Source of the DNA: a virus
Taxonomy: Duplodnaviria; Caudoviricetes
DNA length: 64,000 nucleotides
Virus record (IMG/VR): IMGVR_UViG_3300002026_000022
Span: 3,057 to 67,056 of that record
Strand: one strand, 5' to 3'
Shown: positions 17,054 through 52,830 of the stretch, one piece after another
Layout of the letters: every line of letters starts with the position of its first letter
How positions within the stretch are numbered: the stretch's first letter is position 1
The notes under the pieces: model-generated
Database searches by the model: none
Seen by the model: only the letters and a program-made list of their open reading frames with translations
What the model was told of the DNA's origin: nothing
Program-made: the position numbers and the translations under genes

Positions 17054-17059
17054 TACACT

Positions 17060-17482: not shown

Positions 17483-17486
17483 GTCC

Positions 17487-20176: not shown

Positions 20177-20716
20177 ATGAATTATGAATATGCATCAAAT
20201 CCAATATGGCGCACAAGATCCTCAATTAGTTTGATCGTTAAGTTTGTGGACCATGATTCAGAAGTACCATTCATTGCACACAGTGATGATACTGATGAAT
20301 ATAATAGAGAACTATTTACGCGAGCAGCGAATGGTGAGTTTGGTCAGATCAATAATGCCCGAATAGACGTCTTTGATGGTGTATGGAAACGCATACAAGA
20401 AATCCGAGACATAAAAACCAACAATGGTGGTTGTAAAGTAGGACCATATTGGTTTCATTCTGATACACACTCAAAACTTCAGCAATTGGCATTGGTGATG
20501 GCTGGCAGTAATTTACCAAAAAACATCATGTGGAAAACAATGACGGGTGAGAAAGTTCTAATGACACCTGACTTGGCAGTTGGTATATATTTTAGTCAGA
20601 TGATGCAAGAGCAATCTATATATGATTATGCTGAACAACTAAAGGAACAGGCAGAAAATCTGGAGTTTCCTGAGACGTTGGATATTGAAAATAATTGGCC
20701 TGAGGTGTACGAATGA
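20177..20716 (+). CDS. Tail fibre assembly chaperone-like protein (DUF4376-like C-terminus)
   Basis: NPIW...EVPFIA..D...LF..A..GEFG N-module; WKRIQEIRD...WFHSD..S C-module; coupled to the giant fibre gene. Confidence 0.6.
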   Translation: MNYEYASNPIWRTRSSISLIVKFVDHDSEVPFIAHSDDTDEYNRELFTRAANGEFGQINNARIDVFDGVWKRIQEIRDIKTNNGGCKVGPYWFHSDTHSKLQQLALVMAGSNLPKNIMWKTMTGEKVLMTPDLAVGIYFSQMMQEQSIYDYAEQLKEQAENLEFPETLDIENNWPEVYE

Positions 20717-23700: not shown

Positions 23701-26700
23701 TCTGCTGGCACAACACAATGGCGGAATGTTATCTGGTGTCCAACACAAAACTATTTCATGGCAATTCAGGGTGGTGGTGTTGCATCAACGATAGTTGCAT
23801 ATTCAACCAATGGCAAAGATTGGTCAACAGTAACAACTGCTCCCGCTTCCGCAACATGGCAATCTCTTGCATTTGATAACTCACAAGCAACAAACAAATG
23901 GGTCGGCGTTGCTGGTGGTGGTGTTGCATCAACAGCAGGAACTAGAGCAACTATCACAAACGGTTCGATTGTATTTGCAGCAACAACATTGGCATCTGCA
24001 CAATGGATTGATGTTGCCTCTAGTGGTGCTGGTAGATATGTTGCAATTGCTGGTGGTTCAGCAGTTGGTACAGCAACATCATGGTCAAATGACGGTGCAA
24101 CATGGACTGCTGGTGGTGCACATGCATCAAGTTTATGGCAATCTGTCGCATATGGTAATGGCACATTTTGTGCAATATCTTCATCATCAACAACTGGTCC
24201 TACAGCATGTTCAGCAGACGGTGTGGCATGGACTGCAGGTACTGCGCCAACATTACCTGCTGGCATGGTATATAACAAGGTCATATACACTGGTACTGCA
24301 TTCGTATTATTAGCAGGAACACCACCACTCAATACTGCAAACCCAATGGTGAGTGCTGCTGTTGCATTGAATGCAAGTCAGTGCTACGTAGTATCAACAT
24401 CAAATACTGCTACATCTGTAACATGGGGATCAATCAAATATCTACCAGATTACACCCATTGGATTAGTATGACCAACAATGGTAATGCTGTTGGTGTAAT
24501 CTCTACACAGACTGGCAAGTTTGCATACACTGCTGATATTACTGCAGGCACACCAACATGGACATTGACTGAAAGTGTCTATCCAGTGTGGAACAGAATC
24601 TCATTGTTGGATCAGGCAACATCATACACAACTGCAGGTGCAACTATTGCCTCTGTTGCAACGACTGCAGGAAGCACAACAGTTACATGCACATCAACTG
24701 CAACATTATATGTCGGTGCGGTCATCACTCTTAACCAAGGTAACTGTAATGCAGCAGGAGCAGTATATTTTGGAACACCAGCAGTTGGTTCTAACGTAGC
24801 TGCGGTCATAGTTACAAGCATAACCAATGCTACAACATTTGTTATCAATAAACCAGCAATGAAAGACACTACTGGTGGAACATTGACAATCTACAAACAT
24901 GCATATCAAATATTCAGATCAACAACCGAAGGTTTCACTGCAAGAGACGAAACCACGCTATTGGGAACTACCTTAGGCACTGGTAGTACTGGTGCACTAA
25001 TTGACGATACGTTTGGTGTTGTAAAAGATACTCCATATCATTATCGAGTGAGAAAATTATCTGGCAGTCAAACTGTTGCAAACTGCTCTGGTACTGCATC
25101 AGCATCAACTATAACTACAACATTTACAAATATTCCAAACCCAACTACCGGTTTCTATTACTGGAACTATTCGTATGACATTGAAGGTAAGAATGGTACT
25201 GACATTATTTCATCACTGTCTTTCAACTTTTATGCTGTTGGTGTTATTCCAGGATCAATCGTTACAGGCGCGGGTATTCCAGTAGGAACAACTGTTGCAG
25301 AAGTAATCGACTTTGATACTGTTCGTCTCTCTGCAAACCTAACTGCTGATGTAGTTAATAGAGGCACAAATAGAACATATGTTGGTTTCAGTCCAGCACC
25401 AGATATGTATGTGTATGGTTCTAACGTCGGTATGGATTGTCAGGTTGTTTCTGTTGATAGTAACACTTCAATGACAGTTTCTGTTGCCAATACAAATACA
25501 TTTTCAAACCAAACATTGAGATTTGTTGTTGGGTTTGAATTACCAGAAATTACTTGTATTCCACAAGCACCTGTGATGTATATGAATAATGCATTACAAT
25601 CACAAGCAATAGCAACAACCCCATGGACTGCATCTGGTGTTACAGTGACAAACGCATCTGGACAACTTGCACCATATGATAACTTCCTTGGACTTAACGG
25701 TAATGCTACAGCAAGTGCTGTAGCAATGGTGGCAACTGCAAACAATGGCACAGTTACTCAAACTGTTCAAACTGGTGTTGGCACAAGTCATACATTTGCA
25801 ATCTATGCTCGTGCAAACATTCCTAACAACACTTCATACATTACGATGAAGATGGATTTAGGCACAACATCTGAAACCAAAACATTGACAAACCAATGGA
25901 CAAGATACTCAGTAACGTTTACCACAACTGCGGCAACAACAAACGCAGTAATTACAATACCTGCAATGGGATCAAACATTCAAGTTGCACATGCTACTGT
26001 CACACGCACAAGCGGAATACCAACAACGATTGCTGGTAACGCACTTGCTGCTACAACCACATATCCAATTTACTTATTCCCACAGCAGTTATTGAACCCA
26101 TCAAACGGATTATACGGATGGAATATTGATGGTGGTGGAGGTATTGAAACAAACTTACTAGCAGTACCAACATCACAACTTTGGGCGCATTTGCATCTTG
26201 GTGCAAGTTCATCATTTACACCAACAGACCAAAACCAATTGTTTAGCACTATGACTCCTGGTGCAGGTGATCCTATAATTTCTGTTGGCACTTCTGCTGC
26301 AAACGTGACAGTTTCAAATTATCAACCATACAATACAAAACAAATTCATCATGGGATGTTGGTATTAGGAACGACTGGTGCTACTAACGTAAACGTAAAA
26401 GATTCGACCTACACTATAAACGGATCTGCTGGATATATTTGCACATCATCACCAGCATACAACATGTATCTCCATAATATTGATGTCATAAACATTCGCC
26501 CATATATTACTGCGTTTTATTTAGATACTGTTAATACAACAAACGCATCTGTAGGTGTAAAATATCAAAACATTCGTTCAAATCGTCAGTCACGAAGTGC
26601 ATGGTATTCACAATCATTAGACACTCAAATGCGTGGAGTATTTGGTGCTAATCCTTATCCTATATATAACGCAAACACGTGGAACTTAAGTACAGAACCA

Positions 26701-28203
26701 ACATATAGTGGTTTGCAGATAACAAGTCAAGCAGTATATGACTCTATGTTCCATGAGTTCACGTATGGAACACAGAACAAAGGTTGCTTAGACGTAAGAC
26801 TAATAGCATCATCCAAGGCATCTAAACCATACACAATTACATCTGGTGTTCCATATTTTACCAATGACGGAAACCTCGCTTTGACAAACGCTGGAGAACA
26901 AGTTGTAATTGAATGGACTCATTTCATCAAAGGATTGACTGGATTTACCAAGAGATTACCGCATATCTACTCAACAGATTTAGGGTTGAACCTAACAACG
27001 TCATTGTGTGCATTGATTGAATATGATCTGGATAAAGGTTCTGGTTACAGTGGCACATGGAAGCAGTTAAATGGGTTTGATGGTATGAATAATCTTGCTG
27101 CTGAAACTGGTATTTCTCCATCAATAGGAGTTAAACCAAAATTCAGAATCACAGCAAGATACGGTCTAAAGTATGCAGCCAAAGTTGGTCAATTTGTTCC
27201 TGGTTGGACTATTCAAAACGCAATTACCTCACCAACAGCAACAGCAGTGGTAGTGGCAGACGAAATTGTCACAGGTGTTACGGGAACATTGATTGCAACA
27301 GACATTACTGGTGAATGGTTGCCTACAAATACCATCTATTCTGGAACAATGAATTCCACAGCAACTGCAACAACCAATGCTACTGCAACAACTACAGGTT
27401 CGAACATTACTGGCACAACCTTCACTGTTGGTACTCAGACAGGTGGTACTGTTGCTGAAGGCATGAAATTGACAGGCACAGGTGTTACTGCTGGCACATA
27501 CATCATCAGCAACATTAGTGGTTCTGGTAGTGGTAGTACATGGTTAGTAAACATTTCACATGCGGGTACAGGATCACAATCAATCACTGGAACAAATAAC
27601 CTTATCACATTAGCATCAAATGCAAACTTCTTTGTTGGATGTGGTGTTGTCTTGATTGGTGCTACATTCGGTGGTATCACATCTGGAACAATATATTATG
27701 TTTCAGAGGTGATTGGTAGTACACAAATTGCAGTTGCTACAAACTATAACAACTCATTGGTTGCAACGAACGTAGCACTGACAAATTCGTCAGGTTCTGT
27801 TCCTATTGCAGGCAGGCATTCAACAATCACTGCAGTTAATACAGCATTCGTGTTTGCTCCACAACCAACCAGTCGTTTGAACTCATTCAGATTATTCACA
27901 GAAGTTGATACTAGCACAGATTACAACTATGCATATTCAACTGCATCATTAACATTGACTGGTTTGAAAACTAATACTGAGGTTCGTGTGTATAGAACAT
28001 CAGACTTGTTTGAATTGGGTGGTACTGAGAATTCTGGTACGACATATACATTGAATTATGACTACTATGCAGATACAGAAGTTTATATTGTGATTCACTC
28101 ATTAGATTATATTCCAATCAGATTGGAAGGCATCACATTAGGGGCAAGCAATCAATCTATACCAGTTCAACAACAAAGAGACAGACAGTATCTCAATCCA
28201 TAA
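20713..28203 (+). CDS. Giant fibre/adhesin (2496 aa) with Asp-box (BNR) repeats and beta-rich domains
   Basis: Repeated S-x-D-x-G-x-T-W boxes (STDDGATWS, STDNGATWT, SEDDGATWT, SNDGATWT); very T/S/A/G-rich; Ig-like C-terminus LTLTGLKTNTEVRVY. Confidence 0.8.
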   Translation: MTAYVATTNQNIDEVGYRFYAPIVSSRNTYSSVNGFTWTSYSNVNDAAVAWTGFAFGDELAVFIAANRTVTATTSPEATGGAVNRTLALPAGAAWKGCAFGNHTFVTINTSTTSAAYFRPRANIDWTVSTLPSAAAWNLVAFGNNTFVTVAASSTSSAYSTDDGATWSPSTLPASLNWSDLKYYNGTFILIANGSRDIYTSTDGQSWTLITDALPSTAAWSKISWASMGGANGTWVVVPGSGDASAYSTDNGATWTSTTLPASANWLVGGGKAPWDGRQMFVALTVSSTNAAFSTDGINWTPSVITSGVYLGVFWIEPKIMTGDTVQINNGAILTVNTDQVKAVSGATACVITNGKLRIENTSTSTPIRFVTNKVTTAAALNTINAASGLSVVEVAGDYIQIGTSTGASGQTFTSPYVYGDYIPTLEVETGNGTGVYEPWVNVTGASDFQTFKYIRNGFKSVSNGDAGTCFTQDFNQSAVQYLNLANCKSVPNTNVIKCDSTAGLVPGTWITGRGLAALTFVQEIISSTIFTTNQTVSAANTFANIPMIGILPICSQYTTTLRFGDGTNGAIPPNGARIRVQNILLTDISTPNFQISNYGSTNAGCYFYSPFGGVFSFDKCLFGESYSNYTQAAALTITNCGGAYVPYAAECYQVVLNNVAFGLRPSNMCLAAAPTALAAGSVSGTTLTTPATNALIPGVLITGTAGLHACVISSITNNTTATISVAAHTNGATTISYYGVWVMREHRMNVSNNQASGSTFSSIAWPYISNASFTNIVLTHGGHLITGSNTNPALGTGTGGAFSTSYSNNVTVNGLKVIAVGSYPRTRPYANAISTSVSGLNQTYSNIKIYNMSDVLTASAVNGITVSNITHKIGLNNEGYGWISGYRAFTDPENATFLANDTKYWFKTRSYRSHNFADTTNYIDGMKMCAVMSAPEKYKLMPQRMGALPAWSTTIAPTMAYGNGVWVILDGAVSGSSCIVSEDDGATWTTYMMPQSAGTTQWRNVIWCPTQNYFMAIQGGGVASTIVAYSTNGKDWSTVTTAPASATWQSLAFDNSQATNKWVGVAGGGVASTAGTRATITNGSIVFAATTLASAQWIDVASSGAGRYVAIAGGSAVGTATSWSNDGATWTAGGAHASSLWQSVAYGNGTFCAISSSSTTGPTACSADGVAWTAGTAPTLPAGMVYNKVIYTGTAFVLLAGTPPLNTANPMVSAAVALNASQCYVVSTSNTATSVTWGSIKYLPDYTHWISMTNNGNAVGVISTQTGKFAYTADITAGTPTWTLTESVYPVWNRISLLDQATSYTTAGATIASVATTAGSTTVTCTSTATLYVGAVITLNQGNCNAAGAVYFGTPAVGSNVAAVIVTSITNATTFVINKPAMKDTTGGTLTIYKHAYQIFRSTTEGFTARDETTLLGTTLGTGSTGALIDDTFGVVKDTPYHYRVRKLSGSQTVANCSGTASASTITTTFTNIPNPTTGFYYWNYSYDIEGKNGTDIISSLSFNFYAVGVIPGSIVTGAGIPVGTTVAEVIDFDTVRLSANLTADVVNRGTNRTYVGFSPAPDMYVYGSNVGMDCQVVSVDSNTSMTVSVANTNTFSNQTLRFVVGFELPEITCIPQAPVMYMNNALQSQAIATTPWTASGVTVTNASGQLAPYDNFLGLNGNATASAVAMVATANNGTVTQTVQTGVGTSHTFAIYARANIPNNTSYITMKMDLGTTSETKTLTNQWTRYSVTFTTTAATTNAVITIPAMGSNIQVAHATVTRTSGIPTTIAGNALAATTTYPIYLFPQQLLNPSNGLYGWNIDGGGGIETNLLAVPTSQLWAHLHLGASSSFTPTDQNQLFSTMTPGAGDPIISVGTSAANVTVSNYQPYNTKQIHHGMLVLGTTGATNVNVKDSTYTINGSAGYICTSSPAYNMYLHNIDVINIRPYITAFYLDTVNTTNASVGVKYQNIRSNRQSRSAWYSQSLDTQMRGVFGANPYPIYNANTWNLSTEPTYSGLQITSQAVYDSMFHEFTYGTQNKGCLDVRLIASSKASKPYTITSGVPYFTNDGNLALTNAGEQVVIEWTHFIKGLTGFTKRLPHIYSTDLGLNLTTSLCALIEYDLDKGSGYSGTWKQLNGFDGMNNLAAETGISPSIGVKPKFRITARYGLKYAAKVGQFVPGWTIQNAITSPTATAVVVADEIVTGVTGTLIATDITGEWLPTNTIYSGTMNSTATATTNATATTTGSNITGTTFTVGTQTGGTVAEGMKLTGTGVTAGTYIISNISGSGSGSTWLVNISHAGTGSQSITGTNNLITLASNANFFVGCGVVLIGATFGGITSGTIYYVSEVIGSTQIAVATNYNNSLVATNVALTNSSGSVPIAGRHSTITAVNTAFVFAPQPTSRLNSFRLFTEVDTSTDYNYAYSTASLTLTGLKTNTEVRVYRTSDLFELGGTENSGTTYTLNYDYYADTEVYIVIHSLDYIPIRLEGITLGASNQSIPVQQQRDRQYLNP

Positions 28204-31206: not shown

Positions 31207-31785
31207 ATGGCACTACTTGCAAAATTAGCACTAACTGAAAATGCTGAACTAGAATTTGGCATGGAAGTGTTCGGCACAACTGAGAAACCTGCAAAAATTC
31301 GGTTTGTGATCGAGGGTCCAGATTATGACATTGCATGTCACTGCGAAGATGTTGGTGACAGCATTAAAGTCAAAGTACCAAAGTTGAAAGGTGTGATGCC
31401 ATCTGGTGTGTATGAATCAAGATTGGAAGTCATCATCGACGGAAAAATCTTCACCCCACTGACAGAATCAATCGAGTTCGAACCATTGGTGGAATTCGAT
31501 GTGACCAAGAAAAAGACCAAATCCATAAAAGAGGGTGTCAAGGTTGAAGCGAAAAATGTGAAGATCATTGCAGAAGATTCTCGTGAGACTTCACCAAAAC
31601 AAACTGGTTTGGAAAAGAACATTCAACAATGTATCAAAGAAGGATTTGAGGTGTCAAAAGTTGGCGATAACTATATCATGAAGAAAGGCAACACCTATGT
31701 CGGAATCATTTCCGAAAAGTCAATCCTAAAATCTGAAAAGGCATATAGCACACTTACTGAATTGATCGATGGTTTAAGCGTATAA
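31207..31785 (+). CDS. Conserved T4-like hypothetical protein (Ig-like N-domain)
   Basis: LEFGMEVFG...RFVIEG...VKVPKL...LEVIIDGKIFTPL beta-sandwich pattern. Confidence 0.55.
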   Translation: MALLAKLALTENAELEFGMEVFGTTEKPAKIRFVIEGPDYDIACHCEDVGDSIKVKVPKLKGVMPSGVYESRLEVIIDGKIFTPLTESIEFEPLVEFDVTKKKTKSIKEGVKVEAKNVKIIAEDSRETSPKQTGLEKNIQQCIKEGFEVSKVGDNYIMKKGNTYVGIISEKSILKSEKAYSTLTELIDGLSV

Positions 31786-31788
31786 ATA
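31781..31788 (+). promoter_or_regulatory. Late promoter (TATAAATA)
   Basis: Perfect consensus 30 nt upstream of the tri-domain glycosyltransferase. Confidence 0.8.
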
Positions 31789-31818
31789 GTTTCGTAATTT
31801 TAATAATGGAGATTTGTT

Positions 31819-34680
31819 ATGAAAAAGATAATTGGGTTCGTCACACTTGGCATTGAGTTTAACGGTGATTCGATCAAAGAGAAGTCGTTAGGTGGTTCTG
31901 AAAGTGCCATGATTTATATGGCACGAGAATTAGCACGATTGGGCAACGAAGTTATTGTATTCTGTCCATGTGACAAACCTGGAGTTTATGGTGGAGTTCA
32001 ATATCATGACATTGAAGTGTTCAATAATCGTGCATTCATTTATTCATTTGATGTTATGGTGATCTCAAGGTTTATTGATTTTGCCACGCAACCACTTGAT
32101 TCTAAAATGAATATTCTTTGGTTACATGACATGCCTCAACCAGAGGATTTATCAAAGAAGATGTGGCAAATTGATAAAATTTTCAATATGTCACAATATC
32201 AAAAACAAATTTATATTGACAAATATCCAAGTTTCCGTGGTTATATTGATGTAACCAAAAATGGATATGATTCTGAGTTGGCAAAATTTATTTTGGCGAA
32301 CAAAGAACAACCATCAATTGATACACGATTGAAAAACTTTACATACATTTCTCGACCAGAACGTGGTCTTGGGTATCTATTGACAGAACTGTGGCCAGAA
32401 ATCCTCAAGAAAATTCCTGACGCAACACTTAACATTTGTGCATATGATTCAAATGTTAAAAATGCAAAGATGGTTATTGAACCAGAATTTTATGACATGA
32501 TCGATGCATTGGTAAAGAAGACTCCAAACATCAAGAATCATGGCAACTTGAACAAGATTGAATTGTATCGTTTACTTTCAAATTGTGGAGTTATGTTATA
32601 TCCAACAGCATTCCCAGAAATCTCGTGCATCTCTGCTATTGAAGCGCAAGGTACAGGTTGTGTGATCGTGACAACAGATGATTTTGCATTATCAGAAACA
32701 GTAAAAACAGATACATTGATTGATGCAGAAGTCGGATCAAACAAGTACAAAGACATGTTTTTAAGTAAGGTGTTTGATCTGTATGATGATAAAGAATATT
32801 GGTTTGCACAGTCTGAATTGGGCAAAGAAAAGATGGCAGACTATTCGTGGAGAGCAATTGCTGCAGATTGGAATGCTCGATTCGATAAAATGTTTATGGA
32901 CAGGTTTCACAAGAACCAAAAAGGTGTTGCGACAAAATTATTTTATAATTCAGATGTGGTTGCAGGTTATGAAGTATTTGGTGAAGAAGATATCTTGCCA
33001 GAAAAATACACATTTGGAAATTTCAAAGATTATATTGATGTAAGTGTCAATAGCAATCTTGATTATGAACAGAATTACAATCCGGTGTTTGATGCAGAAC
33101 CTGAAAAATATAACAAACGCATTGGGCATTTGGTTGAATTTTTACAGAAACATTTACCAAAGACTAGACAATATACAGTGTTAGATGTTGCATGTAACAC
33201 AGGCATGATGAGTTCTGCCGCACAACGAAATTTACCTAACATTAAAAAGGTTATTGGTGTTGATGCCCACAAACCATCACTTGATGTGTATAAGGCAAAT
33301 TGTAAATTCCCACAGAATGAATTTTATTTGCATAATGTAACGGATCTTGACTCTCTTGAAATTGAACCAGTTGATATGATTTTTGCTGGTGAGATTATGG
33401 AGCATGTGCGTGATCCATATGCGTTCATCGAAAGTATTTTGCGTAAGTGTGCAGAGAATTGTAATGTCATTTTCTCAGTGCCATATGGTCCATGGGAACA
33501 AATTTCATATACCAGAGGATATTCACCAGAAAAAGATATTAAACACATTCATCATTTTGAGTATGCAGACATTAAACATATCTTCCAAGAATTTGATGGA
33601 TTGTTTGTCACTCGTGCAGGAACACAAATGACGGGTTTGCATAATGAACCTCTTGATACTTGGACATTTGGATTTAAATATTCTCCATCTAGTCCTAGAA
33701 AGATACACAAAATCAATTACTTAGAGAAGGCATTTAAGACACGTCCATACAAGTCAATTTCTACTTGCATGATTGTCAAGAATGAGGAAGATAATCTGTC
33801 AAGATGTTTGAAGTCTGTAAAACTCATATCAGATGAAATTATCATTGTCGATACTGGTTCAACAGATTCAACAAAACAGATTGCAGCAAAATTCACAGAC
33901 AAGATTTACGACCATCGATTTGAAGAAGAAGATGGTGTCGGAAACTTCGGTGCAGCAAGAAACTTTGCAATGTCAAAGGCAACAGGAGATTGGATATTCT
34001 ATATCGATGCTGATGAAGTTGCAATGAATCCTCAGTTTCTTGGGTATTTCTCCGATACAGAATTCTTTGATGGTATTGCGATTCAGCAACGTCAAGCACG
34101 AACATCTAATGGTGATCCAGACAAAGAATTACCTGTGAGAATGTTCAAGAATAACGGAAACATCAAATTCTATGGTGTATTGCATGAACATCCTGGATAT
34201 GACATTAATTCGTTTGTTGAAGGCGCAATGTTAATGGATATGACATGGTTGAATCACTATGGATATGTCGATGACGATGTTACCAAATGGAAAATCGCCA
34301 CTCGTAATCGTCCACTTTTGATGAAAGATCTAAGAATGAATCCTGATCGAGATATCAATAAGGTATATCTGTTAATGTCAATGATTGGTGATGTATATAC
34401 CTATCCTGCAGGAAAACTAGGCATCATTGTTGATAAAATTGCAGATGTATATGTAGTATGGGATCGGTATTTCAAAGAGAAACGTGAGAATGATATTGGT
34501 TGGGAAGTGGTGAAACAAAGAGGATGGTTACAGTATCAAATGTTCCTCTATAACCTATACCAAAACAAGGAATTTGGAATCATTAAATTTGAATTCACCA
34601 AGAATGATGAAGAAAAGCATGATTACTATTTCAGAGATAATGACGAATTAATGAGTTTTCTAAGAGAACATATGACATAA
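31819..34680 (+). CDS. Tri-domain GT-B (GT4-like) / SAM methyltransferase / GT-A (GT2) protein
   Basis: GT4: LGGSESAM, YISRPERGL, YPTAFPEISCISAIEAQ. MTase: VLDVACNTG, AGEIMEHVRDP. GT2: STCMIVKNEE, IVDTGSTD, AARNFA, YIDADE. Confidence 0.88.
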   Translation: MKKIIGFVTLGIEFNGDSIKEKSLGGSESAMIYMARELARLGNEVIVFCPCDKPGVYGGVQYHDIEVFNNRAFIYSFDVMVISRFIDFATQPLDSKMNILWLHDMPQPEDLSKKMWQIDKIFNMSQYQKQIYIDKYPSFRGYIDVTKNGYDSELAKFILANKEQPSIDTRLKNFTYISRPERGLGYLLTELWPEILKKIPDATLNICAYDSNVKNAKMVIEPEFYDMIDALVKKTPNIKNHGNLNKIELYRLLSNCGVMLYPTAFPEISCISAIEAQGTGCVIVTTDDFALSETVKTDTLIDAEVGSNKYKDMFLSKVFDLYDDKEYWFAQSELGKEKMADYSWRAIAADWNARFDKMFMDRFHKNQKGVATKLFYNSDVVAGYEVFGEEDILPEKYTFGNFKDYIDVSVNSNLDYEQNYNPVFDAEPEKYNKRIGHLVEFLQKHLPKTRQYTVLDVACNTGMMSSAAQRNLPNIKKVIGVDAHKPSLDVYKANCKFPQNEFYLHNVTDLDSLEIEPVDMIFAGEIMEHVRDPYAFIESILRKCAENCNVIFSVPYGPWEQISYTRGYSPEKDIKHIHHFEYADIKHIFQEFDGLFVTRAGTQMTGLHNEPLDTWTFGFKYSPSSPRKIHKINYLEKAFKTRPYKSISTCMIVKNEEDNLSRCLKSVKLISDEIIIVDTGSTDSTKQIAAKFTDKIYDHRFEEEDGVGNFGAARNFAMSKATGDWIFYIDADEVAMNPQFLGYFSDTEFFDGIAIQQRQARTSNGDPDKELPVRMFKNNGNIKFYGVLHEHPGYDINSFVEGAMLMDMTWLNHYGYVDDDVTKWKIATRNRPLLMKDLRMNPDRDINKVYLLMSMIGDVYTYPAGKLGIIVDKIADVYVVWDRYFKEKRENDIGWEVVKQRGWLQYQMFLYNLYQNKEFGIIKFEFTKNDEEKHDYYFRDNDELMSFLREHMT

Positions 34681-34683
34681 ATA
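34676..34683 (+). promoter_or_regulatory. Late promoter (CATAAATA)
   Basis: Overlaps the GT stop; upstream of the 34713-37584 operon. Confidence 0.7.
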
Positions 34684-34712
34684 TTAGGTATCCATAACAA
34701 TAATAAAAACCA

Positions 34713-35822
34713 ATGGCACTATATCACGTTAAAACTCAAACTGTTGCTGACGGTACTGCTACATCATTAGTAAGACCGTCAGACTGGAACTCTGGTCATG
34801 CACAATATTTTACCTTTGCGGGTAATACTGCTGGTCAGAGTACTGCGTCTGGAACTAATATATATTTTGCAGGTGGCAATGGAATTACGTTAAATATGGC
34901 ACAGGGTGCTGGTGTGGCAACTATCAGCATTGTTGCTGGAAACTATTTAACAACTGCAATGCTGTCTAATGCTGGTAGTAATTTCTTACCAGTATCAACA
35001 GTCACTGCTGGCGCAAATGCATATAACGTATCTGGCACGTTTGCATCAAACGGCATCACATTGAGTGGGCAACCTAATAATGTGTCATTGTTGGGTAACA
35101 CAGTTGGTGCAAACACTGTAGCACCTTCTGCAGGTGGAACAATATATTTAAGTGGCGGTAATGGCATCACACTATCAGGCAATGGCAGCACAGTAGTCAT
35201 ATCTGCAGGTGCTGTGGGATTTACTAAAACATTCTGGCATCCATATAACGAAGCAGTAAACGTAGCAGGAATACATGGTCAAGCAACATTGGTGGTTAAC
35301 CCTATTCCACTTAATGATTATTTGTCTATGAATAGACTTGTATTTCCATTGTATTTCTCAAATGCGTCAAACTCTACTGGCACGTTATCAATTTCTTTAT
35401 ATTGGGGTGCTTATACTAAAAACGGTTCCACATTATCATCTGTTGCAACATTGAGTACTCTAATAACAATGGCATATGCTGGTAATAACTCGTCTTCAAA
35501 TCAAAGAGGAATTCGACTTCTTACAGTTCCATTTACTACGCAACTTAATCAAAATAGATATTTTGTTGCAGTAGGAATTAGAACATCAACATCTAGTCAT
35601 GGATGTTCATTCAGTCAAATTCTTGTCAGTCAATTGAATTCAAGCGTTTCCGGTCTTTGGAATCAGGCAGCGACCGCATCAATACAGTGGCCGATTGGTG
35701 TTGGTTACTTTTCTGCATCGACTACCGCACTTCCTGCCACAATCGCATTTAGCAATCTTAGAGGGAACAGTAGTCTTGCAGCAAGACCACCTTCATGGCA
35801 TGCAATATCAGGAACAGTATAA
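34713..35822 (+). CDS. Ser/Thr/Gly/Asn-rich fibre-like virion protein
   Basis: VRPSDWNSGH N-motif; internal repeat GGNGITL appears twice; beta-rich C-domain. Confidence 0.6.
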   Translation: MALYHVKTQTVADGTATSLVRPSDWNSGHAQYFTFAGNTAGQSTASGTNIYFAGGNGITLNMAQGAGVATISIVAGNYLTTAMLSNAGSNFLPVSTVTAGANAYNVSGTFASNGITLSGQPNNVSLLGNTVGANTVAPSAGGTIYLSGGNGITLSGNGSTVVISAGAVGFTKTFWHPYNEAVNVAGIHGQATLVVNPIPLNDYLSMNRLVFPLYFSNASNSTGTLSISLYWGAYTKNGSTLSSVATLSTLITMAYAGNNSSSNQRGIRLLTVPFTTQLNQNRYFVAVGIRTSTSSHGCSFSQILVSQLNSSVSGLWNQAATASIQWPIGVGYFSASTTALPATIAFSNLRGNSSLAARPPSWHAISGTV

Positions 35823-35831
35823 GGAATTAAT

Positions 35832-36203
35832 ATGACAAATTATAAAGAATCTACGGGAACATCAACATCATGGCAACGTGCATATCAAGTTGCAATTGAT
35901 AATCGACTTGGACTTACTCCACAAATCACATTTTATGAAGAAGAAGCAGTCGATATGGGTGATGGTCGTTATATGACGAAACACGTTGGACACATAAATG
36001 AAATGTTCAACGATCCAAATACAACATTCAATTTATTAAATCCAGCAACTGGAGACATCATTGGTACAAGTAATTACATGCAAGCGTATGTTCTTTTACA
36101 TTCTATATATATGTATCTAGCAAACCTTCGTGATAATCCACCTGTACCAGTTGAAGTGCCGTCTGAAGAACCACCACCTGAAGAACCACCAGTTGAACCG
36201 TAA
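35832..36203 (+). CDS. Small fibre-associated protein (possible chaperone)
   Basis: NYKES...WQRAYQV.IDN...PQITFYEEEA; Pro/Glu tail. Confidence 0.5.
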   Translation: MTNYKESTGTSTSWQRAYQVAIDNRLGLTPQITFYEEEAVDMGDGRYMTKHVGHINEMFNDPNTTFNLLNPATGDIIGTSNYMQAYVLLHSIYMYLANLRDNPPVPVEVPSEEPPPEEPPVEP

Positions 36204-36241
36204 TAAATATCTATATTATTAATTGAAGGAGCAATTAAGTT

Positions 36242-36982
36242 ATGCAAATGATGCCACAAATTATATCGTCATATGACGAAGGACAACATGGTGCGGATTT
36301 ATCCCAAACTGTAAGTCGTTTGAAAAAAGAAAAGTCTTATAAAGACATGTCGTGTATTCAAATCGTACCTGCATTTGGTCAGATTCCTACAAAGATTGTT
36401 GCCTCTTGGTTAAACATGTATCCACCACCTAATGCGAAATTCGTTAGGTTGTTTGCAATTGGTATGGAAGTGGGTGACGCATTTTCAACATGTATTCAAA
36501 GCATTTTAGATCATCCTGAACTTTCACAATTTAAGTACATATTAACACTCGAACATGACAATTTACCACCACCTGATGGTCTCGTCAAATTACTCGCGCA
36601 AATGGAAGCCCATCCTGAGTTTGCCTGCATTGGCGGATTGTATTTCACTCAAGGGCCGGGGGGATGTGCTCAAATTTGGGGCGATCCCAAGGATCCAGTA
36701 TTGAATTTTCGTCCACAATTACCTGATCCCAATGGTGGATTAGTGGAATGCGCTGGTACTGGAATGGGATTTAATGTATTCAGATTGGATATGTTCAAAG
36801 ATCCAAAACTTAGAAAACCTTGGTTTAAAACAAACACTGAAAATGGTGTCGGAACACAAGATCTTTATTTTTGGTCTGATGCAAGAAAGAATGGATATAG
36901 ATGTGCTATCGATTGTTCGGTTAAGGTTGGTCATTATGACTACGACGGCAAACGTGGTGGCATTCCTGATATGGTTTGGTAA
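36242..36982 (+). CDS. GT-A fold glycosyltransferase (GT2-like)
   Basis: ILTLEHDNLPP (DxD-like), IGGLYF, GTGMGF, QDLYFW, DCSVKVGH. Confidence 0.78.
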   Translation: MQMMPQIISSYDEGQHGADLSQTVSRLKKEKSYKDMSCIQIVPAFGQIPTKIVASWLNMYPPPNAKFVRLFAIGMEVGDAFSTCIQSILDHPELSQFKYILTLEHDNLPPPDGLVKLLAQMEAHPEFACIGGLYFTQGPGGCAQIWGDPKDPVLNFRPQLPDPNGGLVECAGTGMGFNVFRLDMFKDPKLRKPWFKTNTENGVGTQDLYFWSDARKNGYRCAIDCSVKVGHYDYDGKRGGIPDMVW

Positions 36983-36999
36983 ATAAGTGAGGTGAAAAT

Positions 37000-37584
37000 A
37001 TGGTAACGAGAAAAAAGACAGTAAAAGAAACTCCGACTTTCCTTAAATTGGATTTAGGTTGCGGTGGTAAGAAACAAGAAGGATTTGTTGGGGTTGATCA
37101 ATACAAGATGGAAGGGGTTGATGTTGTATTGGATATCGGCACTGCAAAATGGCCATGGAAAAATAACAGTGTAGATGAAGTATATGCTGCACATTTCCTT
37201 GAACATTTGACTCAACAACAACGAGTACATTTCATGAATGAACTGTATCGTGTAATGAAACCTGGTGCAAAAGCATTAATTATTACACCACATTGGGCAA
37301 GCAATCGTGCCTATGGTGATATGACACATGCTTGGCCTCCAGTTGCTGAGATGTTTTATTACTATTTGAAACAGGAATGGCGCAATACACAAGCACCACA
37401 TACTGACAAGAAATGGAATCCGAAAGGGTTTACATGCAATTTTGATGCAATTTGGGGATATTCTTATGCACCTGAGTTAGGTACTAGAAGTCAAGAATAT
37501 GTTCAATTTGCCCTAAATAATTATAAAGAGGCAGCACAAGATTTACATGCAACATTGACGAAACCCATAGTTAATGAAGAATAA
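37000..37584 (+). CDS. Class I SAM-dependent methyltransferase
   Basis: KLDLGCG, GVD, VDEVYAAHFLEHL, ELYRVMKPGA. Confidence 0.85.
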   Translation: MVTRKKTVKETPTFLKLDLGCGGKKQEGFVGVDQYKMEGVDVVLDIGTAKWPWKNNSVDEVYAAHFLEHLTQQQRVHFMNELYRVMKPGAKALIITPHWASNRAYGDMTHAWPPVAEMFYYYLKQEWRNTQAPHTDKKWNPKGFTCNFDAIWGYSYAPELGTRSQEYVQFALNNYKEAAQDLHATLTKPIVNEE

Positions 37585-37596
37585 AAATCAATAATA

Positions 37597-37604
37597 TATA
37601 AATA
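37597..37604 (+). promoter_or_regulatory. Late promoter (TATAAATA)
   Basis: Perfect consensus; RBS ACAGGAG follows. Confidence 0.8.
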
Positions 37605-37635
37605 TTATGTAGTACTCAACAACAGGAGATAAACA

Positions 37636-38067
37636 ATGGCAACATATAACAAGATTAATGACTTCACAGAACAATTGATGAAGGGTGTTCACGTTTGGCA
37701 AACACACACTTTCAGGGTTGCTCTTTCAAACAGTGCTATCACTGCTGGCACAACTATTTTGGGTGAAGTTACTCAGATTACTCAACAAAACGGTTATACA
37801 ACTGGTGGTTATCCTACATCAATTAACGCATTGTTTGAGACAACTGGTACAACTACTGTTCAGGCAGCACAAGTTGTTTATACAGCATCGGGTGGTACTA
37901 TTGGTCCTTTCCGTTATGTCGTTCTTTACAACGACAGCGCAACATCACCTGTTGATGCATTAGTTGCATGGTGGGATTATGGTTCAAGCATTTCGTTGCT
38001 CGATGGTGAAACATTCACTGTCAAGTTCAACAACGCTAACCCAGGAACGATCTTTACCCTAGCTTAA
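37636..38067 (+). CDS. Small virion protein (fibre base/adaptor family)
   Basis: MATYNK...GYTTGG...ASGGTIGPFRYVVLYND...WWDYGSS..L.DGETFTV; a recognisable phage family. Confidence 0.6.
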   Translation: MATYNKINDFTEQLMKGVHVWQTHTFRVALSNSAITAGTTILGEVTQITQQNGYTTGGYPTSINALFETTGTTTVQAAQVVYTASGGTIGPFRYVVLYNDSATSPVDALVAWWDYGSSISLLDGETFTVKFNNANPGTIFTLA

Positions 38068-38071
38068 TAAC

Positions 38072-38761
38072 ATGCCTTCTGTTGCTGATAGAGTCAAAGA
38101 GACCACTACAACAGCAGGATCAGGGACAATAACATTAGCAGGTGCTGCAACAGGGTATCGCACATTTGCTACTGCCTTTTCTGATGGTACTGTTGTTTAC
38201 TATTGTATAGTAAGTGGTAACATGTGGGAAGTAGGGTCTGGAACTTATAATTCCAGCACCCTTACTCGTTCTACTATTCTATCATCTAGTTCAGGTGGTT
38301 CAGCAATCTCATTGTCTGGAACATCTGATGTATTTTGCACACTACCTGCACAAATTCCTAAGTTGTCTGATGTGTCGTCTGCTACTACCTATTATCTAGG
38401 TATGACAACTTCAACATCTGGTACGTTTGATGATATACGGGTAGATGCATCTGACATGTATTACACTTCTGGTGATAATACATTATATGCAACAAACATG
38501 AATACTGCATCTGATGAACGTCTTAAAGAAAATATTTCTCCTATATCAAATGCTTTAGATGTTATCAAGCAGATTGAAGGTGTAAGTTTCAATTGGAAAA
38601 CTACTGGTAGAAAATCATATGGTGTGATTGCTCAACAAATTGAACAATTTTTGCCAGAATTGGTTAATGATGTTGATGATAAGAAATCAGTAAATTACAA
38701 TGCAATAATTGGGTTTTTGATTGAAGCAATAAAAGAATTAGAACTTCGTATCGAGAAGTAA
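38072..38761 (+). CDS. Short fibre protein with C-terminal peptidase S74 intramolecular chaperone
   Basis: N-terminus ADRVKETTTTAGSGTITL; SDERLKENI...GVIAQ...VNYNAIIGFLIEAIKEL. Confidence 0.85.
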   Translation: MPSVADRVKETTTTAGSGTITLAGAATGYRTFATAFSDGTVVYYCIVSGNMWEVGSGTYNSSTLTRSTILSSSSGGSAISLSGTSDVFCTLPAQIPKLSDVSSATTYYLGMTTSTSGTFDDIRVDASDMYYTSGDNTLYATNMNTASDERLKENISPISNALDVIKQIEGVSFNWKTTGRKSYGVIAQQIEQFLPELVNDVDDKKSVNYNAIIGFLIEAIKELELRIEK

Positions 38762-38788
38762 CATTGTTAAATGTGAATGAAACTATAG

Positions 38789-38812
38789 AAAGCACCGTCA
38801 TGGTGCTTTTCT
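38789..38812 (+). terminator. Rho-independent terminator
   Basis: AAAGCACC-GTCAT-GGTGCTTT hairpin followed by TCTATTTT. Confidence 0.75.
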
Positions 38813-38852: not shown

Positions 38853-41800
38853 ATGTTTGGATTTACCCCTCTCTCTAGTGTTCCCATTTCTAGCACCGAT
38901 ATATCAACGGCAGCAGTAAGAACCCTATCGACTGATCCAGCGTATTTTACAGTAACTGGTTTCGACATATACGAAACCATAGCACCAGTAGGATATTCCA
39001 ATGATGCTGGTGCATTAACATTAACAGGAAATGCAAACACCAATTTATTAAGAGGATACGCAGTTGTTGCATCTGCTGGTACATTATCATTAACTGGATT
39101 TGCGAATAATCTTCCAAAAGGTTCTGTATTTAATTCTGCATCAACCACATATGCAATAAGTGGGGTAGATGCAACTTTAGAATCGACTCATACTGATCCA
39201 GCATTCCAACAAAATGCATTCCAGAATGATGCATTCCAAACACTTCAAGCAGTAGCAAAAATATTAGCATGTGATGCTACTACACTTGTTATTAATGGTG
39301 CAGATGCATTCTTAGGTTCTCCACCAAAAGAAATTAATGCAGTAAGTACAACATACCTCATAAGTGGTAATAACGGACATCTTGCTAGATCGAATCTGTT
39401 TAATTCTGCAAGCACAACATATGTAATTTCTGGACAACTTGCAAATATAGTCAAGAGTCATTCGACACTCATTGGTACAGGCACATATGCAATCAATGGC
39501 CAATTGGCAGAGATCGATGTTGCTAGAAACTTCAATGCCGCAACTACAACTTATGCCATAACTGGTCAATTGGCAGAAATTGATGCTGCTAGAAACTTCA
39601 ATGCCACAAGTACAACATATTCATTAACCGGCAATGCAAACACTTCATTCACAATTGGTCATGGTATAAATTGTGCTGCTGGTGTAACTAACTTAACTGG
39701 TCTTTCAACAAGTAACAGTATTGCAGTACGTATTAATTCTAGTGCATATGCAATCTCTGGACAACTTGCTGAAATAGATAAGCAACACTATCTACCATCA
39801 AGTCCAAGTTCATACTATCAAACTGGATACGGAACATCTAATGTAATTTCGGCAAAACTCTCCACGAGTTCTTATTCAATCACCGGATTTGCAGCAGAAA
39901 TAGATAAAGACTATTCAGTAAATGCAAACCCATCGTCATATACCCTAAGTGGTGTATCGACAAAAAATCACATTGTAAATAAATTAGTTGCTGGTTATTA
40001 TCTCATCTATAAAGATGATCCTTGGAGACAATATGTTTCTCTTGGCATGCATATGGATGGTGCAGATAATGGCACTACATTTACTGATATTACTGGAAAA
40101 ACTGTATCTAGAATAGGTACTCCAGTAACAAAAACTGGGGTTAAACGATTTGGCACAGCATCTGCATTTTTTAATGGATCGACTGATGGTTTATCTGTGC
40201 CTAATAGTACAGATTTCGACTTTGAAAATAATAGTTTTACAATACAGGCATTTGTAAATTTATCTTCTCTACCAGCACATGGCGAATATAGAACAATTGT
40301 AAGTAGAGGTGATGGTGGTGGAGCATCAACTTCATTCTGGTTTTATATTGTAAATTTTGCAGGGACGTTTTATTTAGGTCTTAGTTACGGCGACGGAGCA
40401 TCGTTACAATCTTTTGTAGCTCAAATATCAATATCACCAGATGTAACATATCATGTTTTTGTTGAAAGAGCAGGAACCACATTAGTTTTAGGATTAGAAA
40501 ACAATGTAGTTGGTATTCAAGAAAGCATAACTGCTACAATACCTATAATTAATGCACCTCTTTATATTGGTGAAGCATCAAGTGCGTATAGAATACATGG
40601 GTACATTGATGATCTTCTCATTACAAAATACATACCTAGATATTTAAATAATTTCACCCCACCAACACAAGCATTTTCAGATATTTTAGATTACACCGCA
40701 CTACTTAAATCAGGTGTAGTATCCGCAAGTTCATCATCATATGCAATCACAGGTTTCGATACAAGTCTAAGTAAAGTTGGAACCTTTATTGCTGATTCTG
40801 GTGTATATGCAATTACTGGACAACTTGCTGAACTTGATGCCGCTAGAAACTTCAATGCTGCTACTACAACATATGTTGTTACTGGTTTCAGCACTAACCT
40901 TTATTCAACCAAGTATGGTAATTTAAACAGTAGTTCATATGCAATCACTGGTCAATTAGCAGAAATTGACAAGGGATATTCTGTATCTGGTGATAGTACA
41001 ACTTATGCAATCACTGGTTTCAGCACTAACCTATATTCAACCAAATATGGCAATTTAAGTGGCACAACATATGTCATAACAGGAACACCACTTGATACAG
41101 ATACAGGTAAGGTTGAAAACAATGAACCAACTTCGTATGTCATAAGTGGATATCCAACTAACTTATATTCAACCAAGTATGGTAATTTGGTTGCTAGTTC
41201 ATATGTTATTAATGGCAACCTTGCAAATATTGTTAAGGGATATTTCACCAATGAAGTTGCTGGCGTATATGCAATCACTGGATTCGCTGCAGAACTTGAT
41301 AGTGCTAAATCAACTAATCTGAATGCTGGAACATATGTCATAAGTGGATATGCTGCAGAGATTGATAGTACTAGATTGGGTGTTGCAGCAAGTGCAAATT
41401 ATGACATAACTGGATATGCTGCAGAACTAGATAGAACGAACATATTTGTTGCTAGTGCTAGTTCGTATAATTTGAGTGGTGTTGCACAATATAAACATGT
41501 AACAACATATTTACCATATGGTCATTATGAAGTAAGTGGTGAAAGTAACTTAATACCTAATAGTATGATGGTAGGTGCTGGTATTGGAACACCGCCTACT
41601 GGATGGTCAATGGATTCTGGATCTGGAATAACTGTTTCGGTAGTAGGTGTTGGAACAGATGTTTATCCTTATATTGATATCAGATTTAATGGTACTGCAT
41701 CTGCACTTTCATATCCATCATGGAATCAAGGGTGGGATGACAATGGTCCGTTAGCAAATATTGGTGATAAGTTTGTCGCAACAATTGATTTTAAATTAAT

Positions 41801-44800
41801 TGCTGGTACTAATCCAAACTTATTATTATCAATTAGAGAAAACAATATTAATGGTGGATATGTAAGTAATCAATCAGCATTAGTTGCAGTTGATGGTAAT
41901 TGGACAAGATTTACCCATACCGCAACAATGTTGTCGACTGGAACAAGAAGATCTAACTTCCATGTTATTCGTACAACTCCACAATTTGAAGTTGTTGATT
42001 TCACTGTTCGTGTTAGATCACCGCAATTTGAACGTGGTTCAATTGCTAACACATTTATACCGACTTATGGTGCTGCAGTCGACAGAGGTCGACCAGCAGA
42101 AATAGATGTACAAAGATTAGTAACTGCAGATACATCTTCATATGTAATTAATGGACAACCTGCAGCATTTAGTTCTACCAGAACATTAAGCGCAGTTTCG
42201 ACAACGTATGCAATCAACGGACAACCAACAGATCTAGACCTTGGTTTATCTGGCGTAGCATCACCAACAGCATATGCAATCACTGGATTCAATGCTGAAC
42301 TTGATACACAAAGAAACTTCGTTGCTACCAGTACAACATATGCAATCAACGGACAACCTGCAGAACTTGATGCACAGAAATCATTTAATGCTGCATCTAC
42401 TACTTACACACTCAATGGACAACTTACAAAATTAGATCTTACAAGGGTCATTAATTCTGTAAGTACTTCATATGCTATAACTGGCGCACCACTTGATACA
42501 GATGCTGGCAAGGTCGAGAATTTACAAGCAACGACCTATGCAATAAGCGGATTCGCTGCCGAACTTGATAGTGCTAGAAAACTCAATGCAGTTTCAACAA
42601 CATATGCAATCAATGGACAACCTGCTGAAATCGATAGTGCTAGAAACTTCGTTGCTACCAATACAACATATGCAATCAACGGATTCAGTGCTGAACTTGA
42701 TGCTGTTAAAAACATTGTTGCTTCAAGCACCACATATACAATCACTGGATTCAATGTTGAAATTGATGCATTTAGAAACATCAGTGCAGTTTCGACAACT
42801 TACACAATCAATGGTCAGTTGGCAGAACTTGATACATCTAGAAACTTCACTGCATCATCTACAACATATGCAATTAATGGACAACCTGCAGAACTTGATG
42901 CACAGAAATCATTCGTTCTTGAATCTACGACTTATGCAATCAGTGGTAGATCAACTGCAAACATTATCAGTTCTAAAGAATCGCCAAGTGCATACACACT
43001 CACTGGTTTCAATGCAACGACAGTTAAAGGTTACTTCACCAATGAAGTTGCTGGCACATATGCAATCAGTGGTAACGGATTATCATCAAGTGTTGTTGTC
43101 AAGTTATTACCAACCACTTATGTAATCAATGGTACTAATCTTGATACAGATACGGGTAAAGTTGAAAATCTACAAGCAACAACTTATGCAATCAGTGGTA
43201 GATCAACTGCTAACAATATCAGTTCTGTTGAAACAAGTGGCACATATGCAATCACTGGTTATGCAGCATCGATTGTCAAAGGCAGTTCGACTACATTCAG
43301 TTCTGGCACATATGCAATTAATGGATTTGCAACTAATCTATATTCAACCAAGTATGGTAATTTGGTTGCTGGTTCATATGCTATCAATGGTACTAACCTT
43401 GATACTGATACGGGCAAGGTTGAAAATCTACAAGCAACAACTTATGTCATAACTGGATTTGCAACCAATCTATATTCAACCAAGTATGGTAATTTGGTTG
43501 CTGGTTCGTATGCCATATCTGGACAGAATGCGAATGTTGTTAAGGGATATTTTACCAATGAAATTGCTGGTGCATATTCATTAACTGGATATGACACTGA
43601 TCTAGATAGATCAACAGCATTTGTTGCAAGTGCTGGTTCGTATAGTTTGAATGGTTCAATTACTGCTAATAATTTAACAACATATTTGCCATATGGTCAT
43701 TATGAAGTAAGTGGTGAAAGTAACTTAATACCTAATAGTATGATGGTAGGTGCTGGTATTGGAACACCACCTACTGGATGGTCAATATTGACTGGCGGAA
43801 ATGGACTTACTACTAGCATAGTTGGAATAGGAACTGATGTATATCCATATATTGATATTAGAATCAATGGTACTGCTACAGGAGAAAATTATTCTGGGTC
43901 TTGGATAACTCAAAGTCCAACACCATTAACAGTTAATAATGAATTATATTCTGCAAGTATTGATTCTAAGATAATAAGTGGAAGCACACCAAAAACAATT
44001 CAATTTCATATCAGAGAACACCCATTAAATACTGTAGATTATCTATATTCAAACTCTACAAGTTTATCCCTAACTGGTTCTTGGGTTAATAATATTGTTA
44101 CAAGAAATATCTCACACCCGTTAGCAAGAAGAGTAACATTATTATTCTTTGGATATTATATTAATGGTGATGTTGTTGATGTTACATTCAGAATTAGATC
44201 ACCACAATTCAATCGTGGCACATTACAATCCTTCCTACCAACTTATGGTACTGCAGTCGACAGAGGTCGTCCAGCAGAAATAGATGCACAAAGATTAGTA
44301 ACTGCAAATACATCTTCATATGTAATCAATGGCAATGATGCAGATTTAGATAAATCTGCCACTGCCAATTTTGTATCAGGCACATATGCAATCACAGGAT
44401 TCGCAAACGGTACAAGATCAACATATGTAACAAATGCATCTAGCACTACTTACAATATCACTGGCACACCACTTGATACTGACACTGGTCTTGTTGAGAA
44501 CAATGAACCAACATCATATGTAATCACTGGTTACTCAACTAACTTATATTCAACCAAGTATGTCAATTTAAGTAGCACAACCTACACATTAACTGGTTTC
44601 AATGCTGAACTTGATAAGGGATATTCAACTCTTATCAATGCAACAACTTATGCAATCACAGGACAACTTGCAGAGATAGATGCACAAAGAAACTTCAATG
44701 CATCTACATCATCATATGTCATAAGTGGATTTGACACTGAATTTGATATATCTAGAAACTTCAATGCCACATCTACCACATATGCAATCAATGGGCAACT

Positions 44801-51307: not shown

Positions 51308-51580
51308 ATGATTAAGACATATACGTTTGAATGTTATGATGATGAAACTGGAAACTCAACATCCAAAGTTGTTCGCATTAATGATGAGATTGATTCTTGG
51401 ACGGGATATGAAGGACCAATGTGGCAATTTTTTGATTTCTTGAAAGGGTGTGGTTTTGTGTTTCATCACAATGCAGAAATTGGTGTGATGGATTACGACA
51501 AAGATAAATTTGTGAGTGCCGCAGACCCATTGTATGACTCACAAGTTTCTTTTAGTTGGGGCGAAGAAGAAAATGAGTGA
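51308..51580 (+). CDS. Hypothetical protein
   Basis: RBS AAGGAG; QFFDFLKGCGF motif. Confidence 0.6.
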   Translation: MIKTYTFECYDDETGNSTSKVVRINDEIDSWTGYEGPMWQFFDFLKGCGFVFHHNAEIGVMDYDKDKFVSAADPLYDSQVSFSWGEEENE

Positions 51581-52226: not shown

Positions 52227-52227
52227 C

Positions 52228-52815: not shown

Positions 52816-52830
52816 GAATAGGGAGCAATT

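Follow-up and report, generated by a model that had tools for sequence, protein, structure and literature searches.

Positions 31819-38761 of the DNA considered here encode, all on the + strand, two sets of enzymes that, as judged from gene content and context, on balance probably glycosylate and methylate proteins of a phage's own virion, in the cytoplasm and late in infection. The window, i.e., the whole stretch analysed, comprises 64,000 nucleotides (nt) of a Caudoviricetes virus (positions 3,057 to 67,056 of IMG/VR record IMGVR_UViG_3300002026_000022). Unit 1 is a single fusion protein of 953 amino acids (aa; 31819..34680), in which a GT4-like GT-B glycosyltransferase (GT) domain, a class I methyltransferase (MTase) domain and a GT2 domain follow one another. 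Unit 2 consists of a 369-aa Ser/Thr/Asn/Gly-rich fibre-like protein (34713..35822), a 246-aa GT of the GT-A fold (36242..36982) and a 194-aa class I MTase dependent on S-adenosylmethionine (SAM; 37000..37584). An initial annotation had assigned three GT and two MTase domains to the genes starting at 31819, 36242 and 37000, and all five are present there. It had also proposed that a T4-like phage builds methyl-capped glycans on its fibres. That interpretation is partly supported, because the enzymes are soluble and their genes, preceded by late-promoter motifs, form part of virion gene modules.

Domains and neighbourhoods of the two enzyme units

In the fusion, the GT-B domain occupies residues 1-355 (31819..32883), the SAM-dependent MTase domain residues 434-592 (33118..33594) and the GT2 domain residues 642-850 (33742..34368). 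Pfam recognizes the last two directly (class I MTase, residues 434-592, E 2.6e-11; GT2, residues 648-789, E 2.9e-21). For the N-terminal domain of the single sequence, the Pfam scores are all below the cut-off. This domain shares 30% identity with a phage glycosyltransferase (E 4e-27), and its family profile, built from 33 members, matches the GT4 structures GlgM (1e-10) and MshA (1.7e-7). The EX7E pair is also kept, with E267 in at least 90% of the members and E275 invariant. Identity, profile and motif together confirm the predicted GT4-type GT-B assignment. The GT2 domain has much closer relatives of solved structure. Its family profile matches GmaR at 1e-49, ThuS at 4e-29 and SunS at 2e-27, the next-best GT2 structure, TarS, reaching only 1e-10. 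The window's own GT2 domain matches GmaR at 1.3e-34, its first hundred residues, the nucleotide-binding half, being near-identical. By sequence, the domain is thus to be grouped with GmaR, SunS and ThuS, which glycosylate proteins or peptides. The complete GT4-MTase-GT2 architecture recurs in ~60 metagenome sequence clusters (28-42% identity), some of them on contigs of 106-159 kb. Motifs are kept in all three domains: the DxD of the GT2 domain (D730/D732) is invariant, and the EX7E pair and the SAM-binding Gly are present in at least 90%.

Homologues of the fusion gene are found in the virion modules of two unrelated lineages, which argues for a virion target. In T4-like relatives (loci L002, L004 and L018), the gene sits just ahead of gp13, between fibre-like genes and gp13-gp18, the overall order being fibres, GT and gp13-gp20. 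In nine loci of a sipho-like lineage, it follows the major capsid gene and precedes the head-tail adaptor, the full order being portal, protease, scaffold, major capsid protein, in some loci an HNH gene, three-domain enzyme, head-tail adaptor, neck and tail. The HNH endonuclease gene (L010:9468-9998) separates the capsid and enzyme genes in several of these loci and is missing from L011 and L013-L015. The initial annotation had suggested looking for co-occurrence with fibre genes. In the T4-like relatives, fibre-like genes adjoin the fusion; in the nine sipho-like loci, the neighbour is the capsid gene. The acceptor of the 953-aa enzyme, for which fibres had been proposed, could equally be a capsid or neck protein.

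Two relatives stand among further sugar-related genes. In L002, the closest T4-like relative (7856-13239), the genes flanking that of the enzyme encode a sulfotransferase (PF13469), a TPR protein of 455 aa and a P-loop protein resembling adenosine phosphosulfate (APS) kinase; these neighbours suggest sulfated glycans or a TPR recognition subunit acting in trans. L019 (10016-16243) encodes a shorter relative of 882 aa that is similar to the window protein in the GT-B part only (32%). It is followed by an epimerase resembling guanosine diphosphate (GDP)-mannose dehydratase, a Methyltransf_11 protein and a 678-aa GT4 protein. Given the epimerase/dehydratase of L019, some carriers probably encode their own sugar-nucleotide tailoring. 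Taken with the virion-module contexts, L002 and L019 point to the fusion as part of flexible glycan islands in structural modules.

The 246-aa protein of unit 2 has no match by sequence in Pfam, in NCBIfam or among solved structures, and its PHROG match is weak. Its AlphaFold model (pLDDT 83) has a GT-A fold, and a fold search returns 203 PDB matches at E ≤ 0.001, the top listed ones being GT-A enzymes. The best structural match is A197 of Sulfolobus turreted icosahedral virus (STIV; PDB 2c0n; Foldseek E 6e-9; template modelling score 0.57/0.71). It is followed by ColGalT1, LH3, Mimivirus R699 and ppGalNAc-T2, and the ColGalT1, LH3 and ppGalNAc-T among these fold matches are protein-glycosylating enzymes. 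An acidic, metal-binding-type site, E104-H105-D106, lies after strand 4; E104 and D106 are invariant in the family, and H105 is present in at least 90%. By its modelled fold, the protein is a predicted GT-A glycosyltransferase. The 194-aa protein belongs to Methyltransf_11 (phrog_6636) and carries the SAM-binding motif DLGCG. A predicted complex between the two scores 0.03 against a mark of 0.32, which is evidence neither way.

Both unit 2 enzymes are abundant in metagenomes, with 5,109 clusters (at 90% identity) for the 246-aa and 2,144 for the 194-aa protein, and identities to the window proteins reach 89% and 82%, respectively. The MTase gene directly follows the GT gene in all 80 IMG/VR loci fetched with the GT, and in most of them the two overlap or abut (-29 to +25 nt). 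The fibre-like neighbour is nearly as constant. In 63 of 75 loci, one of the two genes next upstream of the pair encodes a protein of 200 aa or more in which Ser+Thr make up at least 24%, a composition that only ~9% of the other large open reading frames (ORFs) in these loci reach. For the pair, whose co-occurrence with fibre genes the initial annotation had proposed to check, the link to such a gene is tight across many phages. None of the 80 pair loci has the three-domain gene within 10 kb, so units 1 and 2 are separable. The carriers differ widely. They include contigs of ~40-45 kb in which, a few kb further upstream, an HK97-type capsid gene is found, and L119 (447,763 bases) and L150 (148,085 bases) are of jumbo size and carry the pair at 62-65% identity. 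Identities of up to 82% on ~40-kb contigs, together with the jumbo carriers, suggest that the module moves horizontally between phage types. The complete 42.6-kb genome of podovirus MW202524 encodes homologues of the GT (56%) and MTase (52%) in the order capsid gene, several GTs, a 598-aa protein of unassigned function, a methyltransferase, GT homologue and MTase homologue. Among cultured phages, the 246-aa GT has a single match, to gp15 of mycobacteriophage Pound, and a weak one (23% identity, E 1e-6); gp15 belongs to a cassette that comprises five GTs together with a kinase and a methyltransferase and stands between the genes for capsid and adaptor.

The 369-aa protein is the proposed acceptor of unit 2. 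It consists of a repeat shaft (residues 1-170) and a beta-sandwich resembling a carbohydrate-binding module (residues 166-369). The structural model is confident only at residues 170-305 and 330-369, within the beta-sandwich, and no fold is claimed for the shaft because confidence in the N-terminal 170 residues is low. The C-terminal domain matches a tail-tip chain of Bxb1 (Z 12.2) and a 201-residue capsid chain of cyanophage A4 (Z 11.9), with the third-best match at 8.2. Judged by its length, the A4 chain is presumably gp25, a trimeric auxiliary cement protein with an N-terminal anchor and a carbohydrate-binding module (PMC12002296). These fold matches point to a fibre-like virion protein with a lectin-like tip, on either the tail or the head. 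Homologues are found by phmmer in 55 loci, mostly at position -1 or -2 from the pair. They keep the N-terminal 60 residues and the C-terminal domain and insert one to three further internal units of ~150 residues. In loci L085-L094, such tandem internal copies lengthen the protein from 369 to more than 800 aa.

Late expression is predicted from promoter motifs. The T4-type late-promoter motif GTATAAATA stands at 31782..31788, 37 nt before the 953-aa gene, and further copies on the + strand precede the 369-aa gene by 36 nt (34677..34683), the 246-aa gene by 39 nt (36203..36209) and the 143-aa gene that starts at 37636 by 38 nt (37598..37604). As the initial annotation had it, the enzyme genes are thus preceded by such motifs, although the 194-aa MTase gene has none of its own; separated from the 246-aa GT gene by an 18-nt gap, it is predicted to be co-transcribed with it. 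The number of ATAAATA copies in the window is not above chance (20 observed, 23.8 expected), and the motif is informative only through strand and position. The + (coding) strand carries 19 of the 20 copies, and for 16 of these 19 a start codon follows within 60 nt, mostly after 29-42 nt (binomial 2e-16, given that 6.8% of positions fall into such 60-nt zones). The one convincing intrinsic-terminator-like hairpin of the region is at 38788..38810 on the + strand. In view of the motif spacing, the 18-nt gap and this single terminator, 31819-38761 reads as one nested late unit, and the operon proposed earlier holds in substance.

Proposed pathway and competing explanations

In the pathway we favour, both units would act late in the host cytoplasm, before or during particle assembly. 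Drawing on a host nucleotide-sugar, the GT2 domain of unit 1 would attach the first sugar to a virion protein, at a Ser or Thr or possibly a Cys side chain; a further sugar would then be added by the GT4 domain, and the MTase domain would methylate the resulting glycan. Fibre, capsid and neck proteins are all candidate acceptors. The enzymes of unit 2, which together with the 369-aa protein would form a mobile module, may place a methylated sugar on this neighbouring fibre-like protein, which is their likely acceptor. We infer that the glycans are methyl-capped and built from host nucleoside diphosphate (NDP) sugars, and likewise which protein and sugar are involved, in what order the steps occur and how the phage benefits. 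That no nucleotide-sugar synthesis genes accompany the enzymes, as noted earlier, agrees with Pfam and PHROG scans, which covered almost every ORF of at least 100 aa and detected none. A more tentative proposal goes further: the fibre-like protein, GT-A and MTase might constitute a self-contained mobile glyco-fibre cassette, found with 60-82% enzyme identity across T4-like myoviruses, ~40-kb phages and jumbo phages, and the three-domain GmaR-like enzyme might be a second, independent protein-priming line.

Several observations weigh against virion glycosylation. The best NCBIfam model for the fusion is the SunS family (TIGR04195), but the score of 64.4 bits is far below the equivalog cut-off of 350 bits, so the protein is related to SunS without being its equivalog. 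Likeness to GmaR and SunS, being a matter of sequence, does not in itself prove a protein acceptor. By Pfam scan, the 953-aa protein lacks a TPR or other peptide-binding region for substrate recognition, whereas bacterial relatives of its GT2 domain contain TPR repeats, as does GmaR. The 369-aa protein has no mucin-like tract, and an excess of N-glycosylation sequons was considered and rejected (10 N-x-S/T observed, 7.9 expected). Fibre-like proteins of related loci are only ~30-45% identical, compared with 60-82% for the enzymes, so the enzymes are not obviously co-evolving with one acceptor. The related loci are not independent, and a nominal P therefore overstates the link to Ser/Thr-rich genes. 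Adjacency could also mislead, because fibre genes are generally Ser/Thr-rich and accessory genes gather near them. Finally, the source phage is uncultured, and with only about a third of its genome in the 67-kb record every claim of absence is limited.

Virion proteins are not the only conceivable substrates. Modification of host structures instead, i.e., of flagellin, pilin, S-layer or cytoplasmic intermediates of lipopolysaccharide (LPS), capsule or teichoic acid, would block superinfection or keep progeny from sticking to cell debris. Bacterial O-antigen synthesis does employ multi-domain enzymes that join GT and methyl-capping functions, which counts for this explanation. Of the solved relatives, the one nearest to the GT2 domain, GmaR, targets a host surface protein, flagellin (PMC9638930), and papers on freshwater phages routinely suggest cell-wall or DNA roles for GTs (PMC10202952). 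We nevertheless consider a host target unlikely. No protein of the locus has a membrane segment (highest 19-residue Kyte-Doolittle mean, 1.35), and of Gtr-type O-antigen glucosylation, which works through the membrane proteins GtrA, GtrB and GtrC, no flippase or membrane partner was found in the window beyond a weak partial match to phrog_841. The late-promoter motifs before the genes of a lytic T4-like phage, the virion-module position kept across several unrelated lineages and the tight link to a fibre-like gene also speak for the virion. Within the virion, however, the acceptors might be capsid, tail tube, sheath or neck proteins, the fibre genes being bystanders in a hypervariable island. 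The position of the three-domain gene after the major capsid gene in the sipho-like lineage fits this idea, as do the MW202524 and Pound cassettes between capsid and adaptor genes, the resemblance of the 369-aa C-terminal domain to the cement protein gp25 of A4, and the capsid and tail tube as targets in mycobacteriophages (PMC11600133). We give it somewhat less weight than a host target, since a Ser/Thr-rich fibre-like gene is the constant neighbour of the pair whatever the phage type, and no capsid gene lies near the pair in the window.

The product might also not be a protein at all but a methylated oligosaccharide, free or bound to lipid, or else a polysaccharide or small-molecule glycoside with an effect on host physiology. 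In favour of this, domains of the GT4, GT2 and class I MTase types are generic, matches of the MTase domains include small-molecule O- and N-methyltransferases and, weakly, the mycofactocin oligosaccharide MTase, and sulfotransferase, APS-kinase-like and epimerase/dehydratase genes lie near the enzyme in relatives. The specific closeness of the GT2 domain to protein and peptide GTs, and the place of the genes in late structural modules, linked to a fibre-like gene, make such a product rather improbable. Glycosylated and methylated phage DNA, as an anti-restriction hypermodification, seems the least credible. T4 glucosylates its own DNA, and diverse phage GTs decorate DNA containing 5-hydroxymethylcytosine (5hmC) or 5-hydroxycytosine (5hoC) (bioRxiv 10.1101/2023.12.21.572611; PMC13326640). 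Yet the earlier statement that base-hydroxymethylase genes are missing stands up to directed searches of the 67-kb record (~32% of the genome), which found no hydroxymethylase (PF00303), no TET/JBP (PF12851, a search without positive control) and no C5-MTase (PF00145). The ThyX gene of the window is consistent with ordinary thymidylate synthesis. In the complete genome of MW202524, which encodes the same enzymes, neither a hydroxymethylase nor a TET gene is annotated, and the genes studied here are late ones in structural modules and show no similarity to the alpha- or beta-GT of T4.

The phage and the genes around the locus

The window covers most of a 67-kb IMG/VR viral contig estimated to be ~32% complete. 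It contains genes for gp14, gp15, gp16, the large terminase gp17, UvsX, a gp41-like helicase and ribonucleotide reductase. The terminase shares 44% identity with its counterparts in cyanomyoviruses and in the Methylophilales phage Melnitz, and a megablast of the region against 50,697 phage genomes gives no match. The gp14-gp17, UvsX and gp41-like genes, together with this null result, indicate a T4-like phage, as the initial annotation had it, and one without a close cultured relative. The sole sequencing run containing the full stretch is a microbial-mat metagenome, which may be the source of the phage; no RNA run containing it is listed. Gene order is unusual for a T4-like phage: gp14-gp17 (15561-19127) are followed by a ~30-kb island of fibre and enzyme genes where gp18-gp20 would be expected, and a second gp13-type match (phrog_211) occurs after the island, at 48251-49189. 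A nucleotide-metabolism block (51516-54690) with ThyX, dUTPase and ribonucleotide reductase comes directly after the structural region.

Three small genes share the late unit with the enzymes. The 123-aa protein (35832..36203, +), which has a Pro/Glu-rich tail, has no phmmer homologue in the related loci and is therefore kept out of the conserved module; tblastn gives one match, in L117. Five related loci encode a homologue of the 143-aa Thr-rich protein (37636..38067, +; phrog_644) immediately upstream of their fibre gene. The 229-aa protein (38072..38761, +) is a mini tail fibre with a short shaft and a C-terminal S74 intramolecular chaperone domain (E 2.4e-17), and ends at the region's only strong terminator. 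Two giant proteins, of 2496 aa (20713..28203, +) and 3032 aa (38853..47951, +), lie on either side of the locus. They are Ser/Thr-rich, as described earlier; like the 369-aa protein, each contains 24% Ser+Thr. They are tied to the enzymes by proximity and composition alone, and nothing indicates an acceptor role. Of the earlier suggestion that the glycans are carried by the fibres, then, the part that concerns the 369-aa-type gene is strengthened by its linkage to the GT-A/MTase pair, and the part that concerns the giants is not.

Relation to known systems

To our knowledge, the sugar-coating of a virus's own particle proteins by viral enzymes has so far been demonstrated only in mycobacteriophages and giant algal viruses. 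The locus had been put forward as a candidate for an undescribed system, which is too strong, as cassettes of GTs and O-methyltransferases with capsid and tail tube proteins as their targets are already known from mycobacteriophages (PMC11600133 and PMC12582341, citing Freeman 2023). In these cassettes (Cluster O Corndog type and others), soluble GTs and a methyltransferase are encoded in or beside the structural operon; GTs and a methyltransferase are likewise found in or beside the structural module here and in the related loci. The systems differ in host and phage type, here a T4-like myovirus from a microbial mat, and in the enzyme families, with a GmaR-like GT2 domain fused to GT4 and MTase domains. 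They also seem to differ in the target, here probably a fibre-like protein, there the capsid and tail tube. The one sequence match between the two is the weak one of the 246-aa GT to Pound gp15, its putative distant homologue.

The nearest relatives of the GT2 domain, GmaR, SunS and ThuS, act on polypeptides and share its DxD motif. The GT domain of GmaR from Listeria monocytogenes puts N-acetylglucosamine (GlcNAc) on flagellin (PMC9638930), and SunS is a peptide S-glycosyltransferase by its NCBIfam and PDB names. Unlike these enzymes, the fusion carries no TPR or peptide-recognition region in cis, although its L002 relative adjoins a gene for a separate TPR protein, and its GT2 domain is joined to GT4 and MTase domains. 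In architecture, the closest counterpart is found in the chlorovirus PBCV-1, in which A064R (GT, GT, MTase) and the stand-alone MTase A061L build and methylate the end of the capsid-protein glycan (PMC9614988). In both cases, a soluble enzyme of two GT domains and one MTase domain is accompanied by a separate second methyltransferase. The comparison, already made in the initial annotation, is accurate as an analogy, but there is no evidence of homology: A064R is not among the 60 listed of the 133 solved structures matched by the fusion profile. The likeness is architectural only. The domain order is GT-MT-GT here and GT-GT-MT there, the folds are GT-B and GT2 here and two GT-A-like domains there, and A064R functions in a eukaryotic host and extends a glycan rather than priming one. 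STIV A197 and the 246-aa GT are both small, soluble, virus-encoded GT-A enzymes, but with 16% identity they show no match at the sequence level.

If the more tentative proposal of a mobile cassette and a second priming line is correct, many aquatic phages would glycosylate their own virion proteins, a widespread trait overlooked so far and not confined to the actinophages. Particle glycans of mycobacteriophages alter antibody recognition, and such glycans might have further effects, on adsorption, stability, protease resistance and the way host defences recognise the particle. Should these enzyme sets decorate fibres and capsids, models of host range and phage ecology, as they stand, would leave out an abundant phage surface chemistry. 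The GmaR-like domain is an expressible candidate for a phage protein O-glycosyltransferase, and the three-gene module of fibre, GT and MTase is small enough for co-expression in E. coli without phage culture. Set against the known systems, what is new here is the T4-like setting, the fusion of a GmaR/SunS-type domain to GT4 and MTase domains, and a GT-A/MTase pair whose strict linkage to a fibre-like gene holds in phages of very different kinds.

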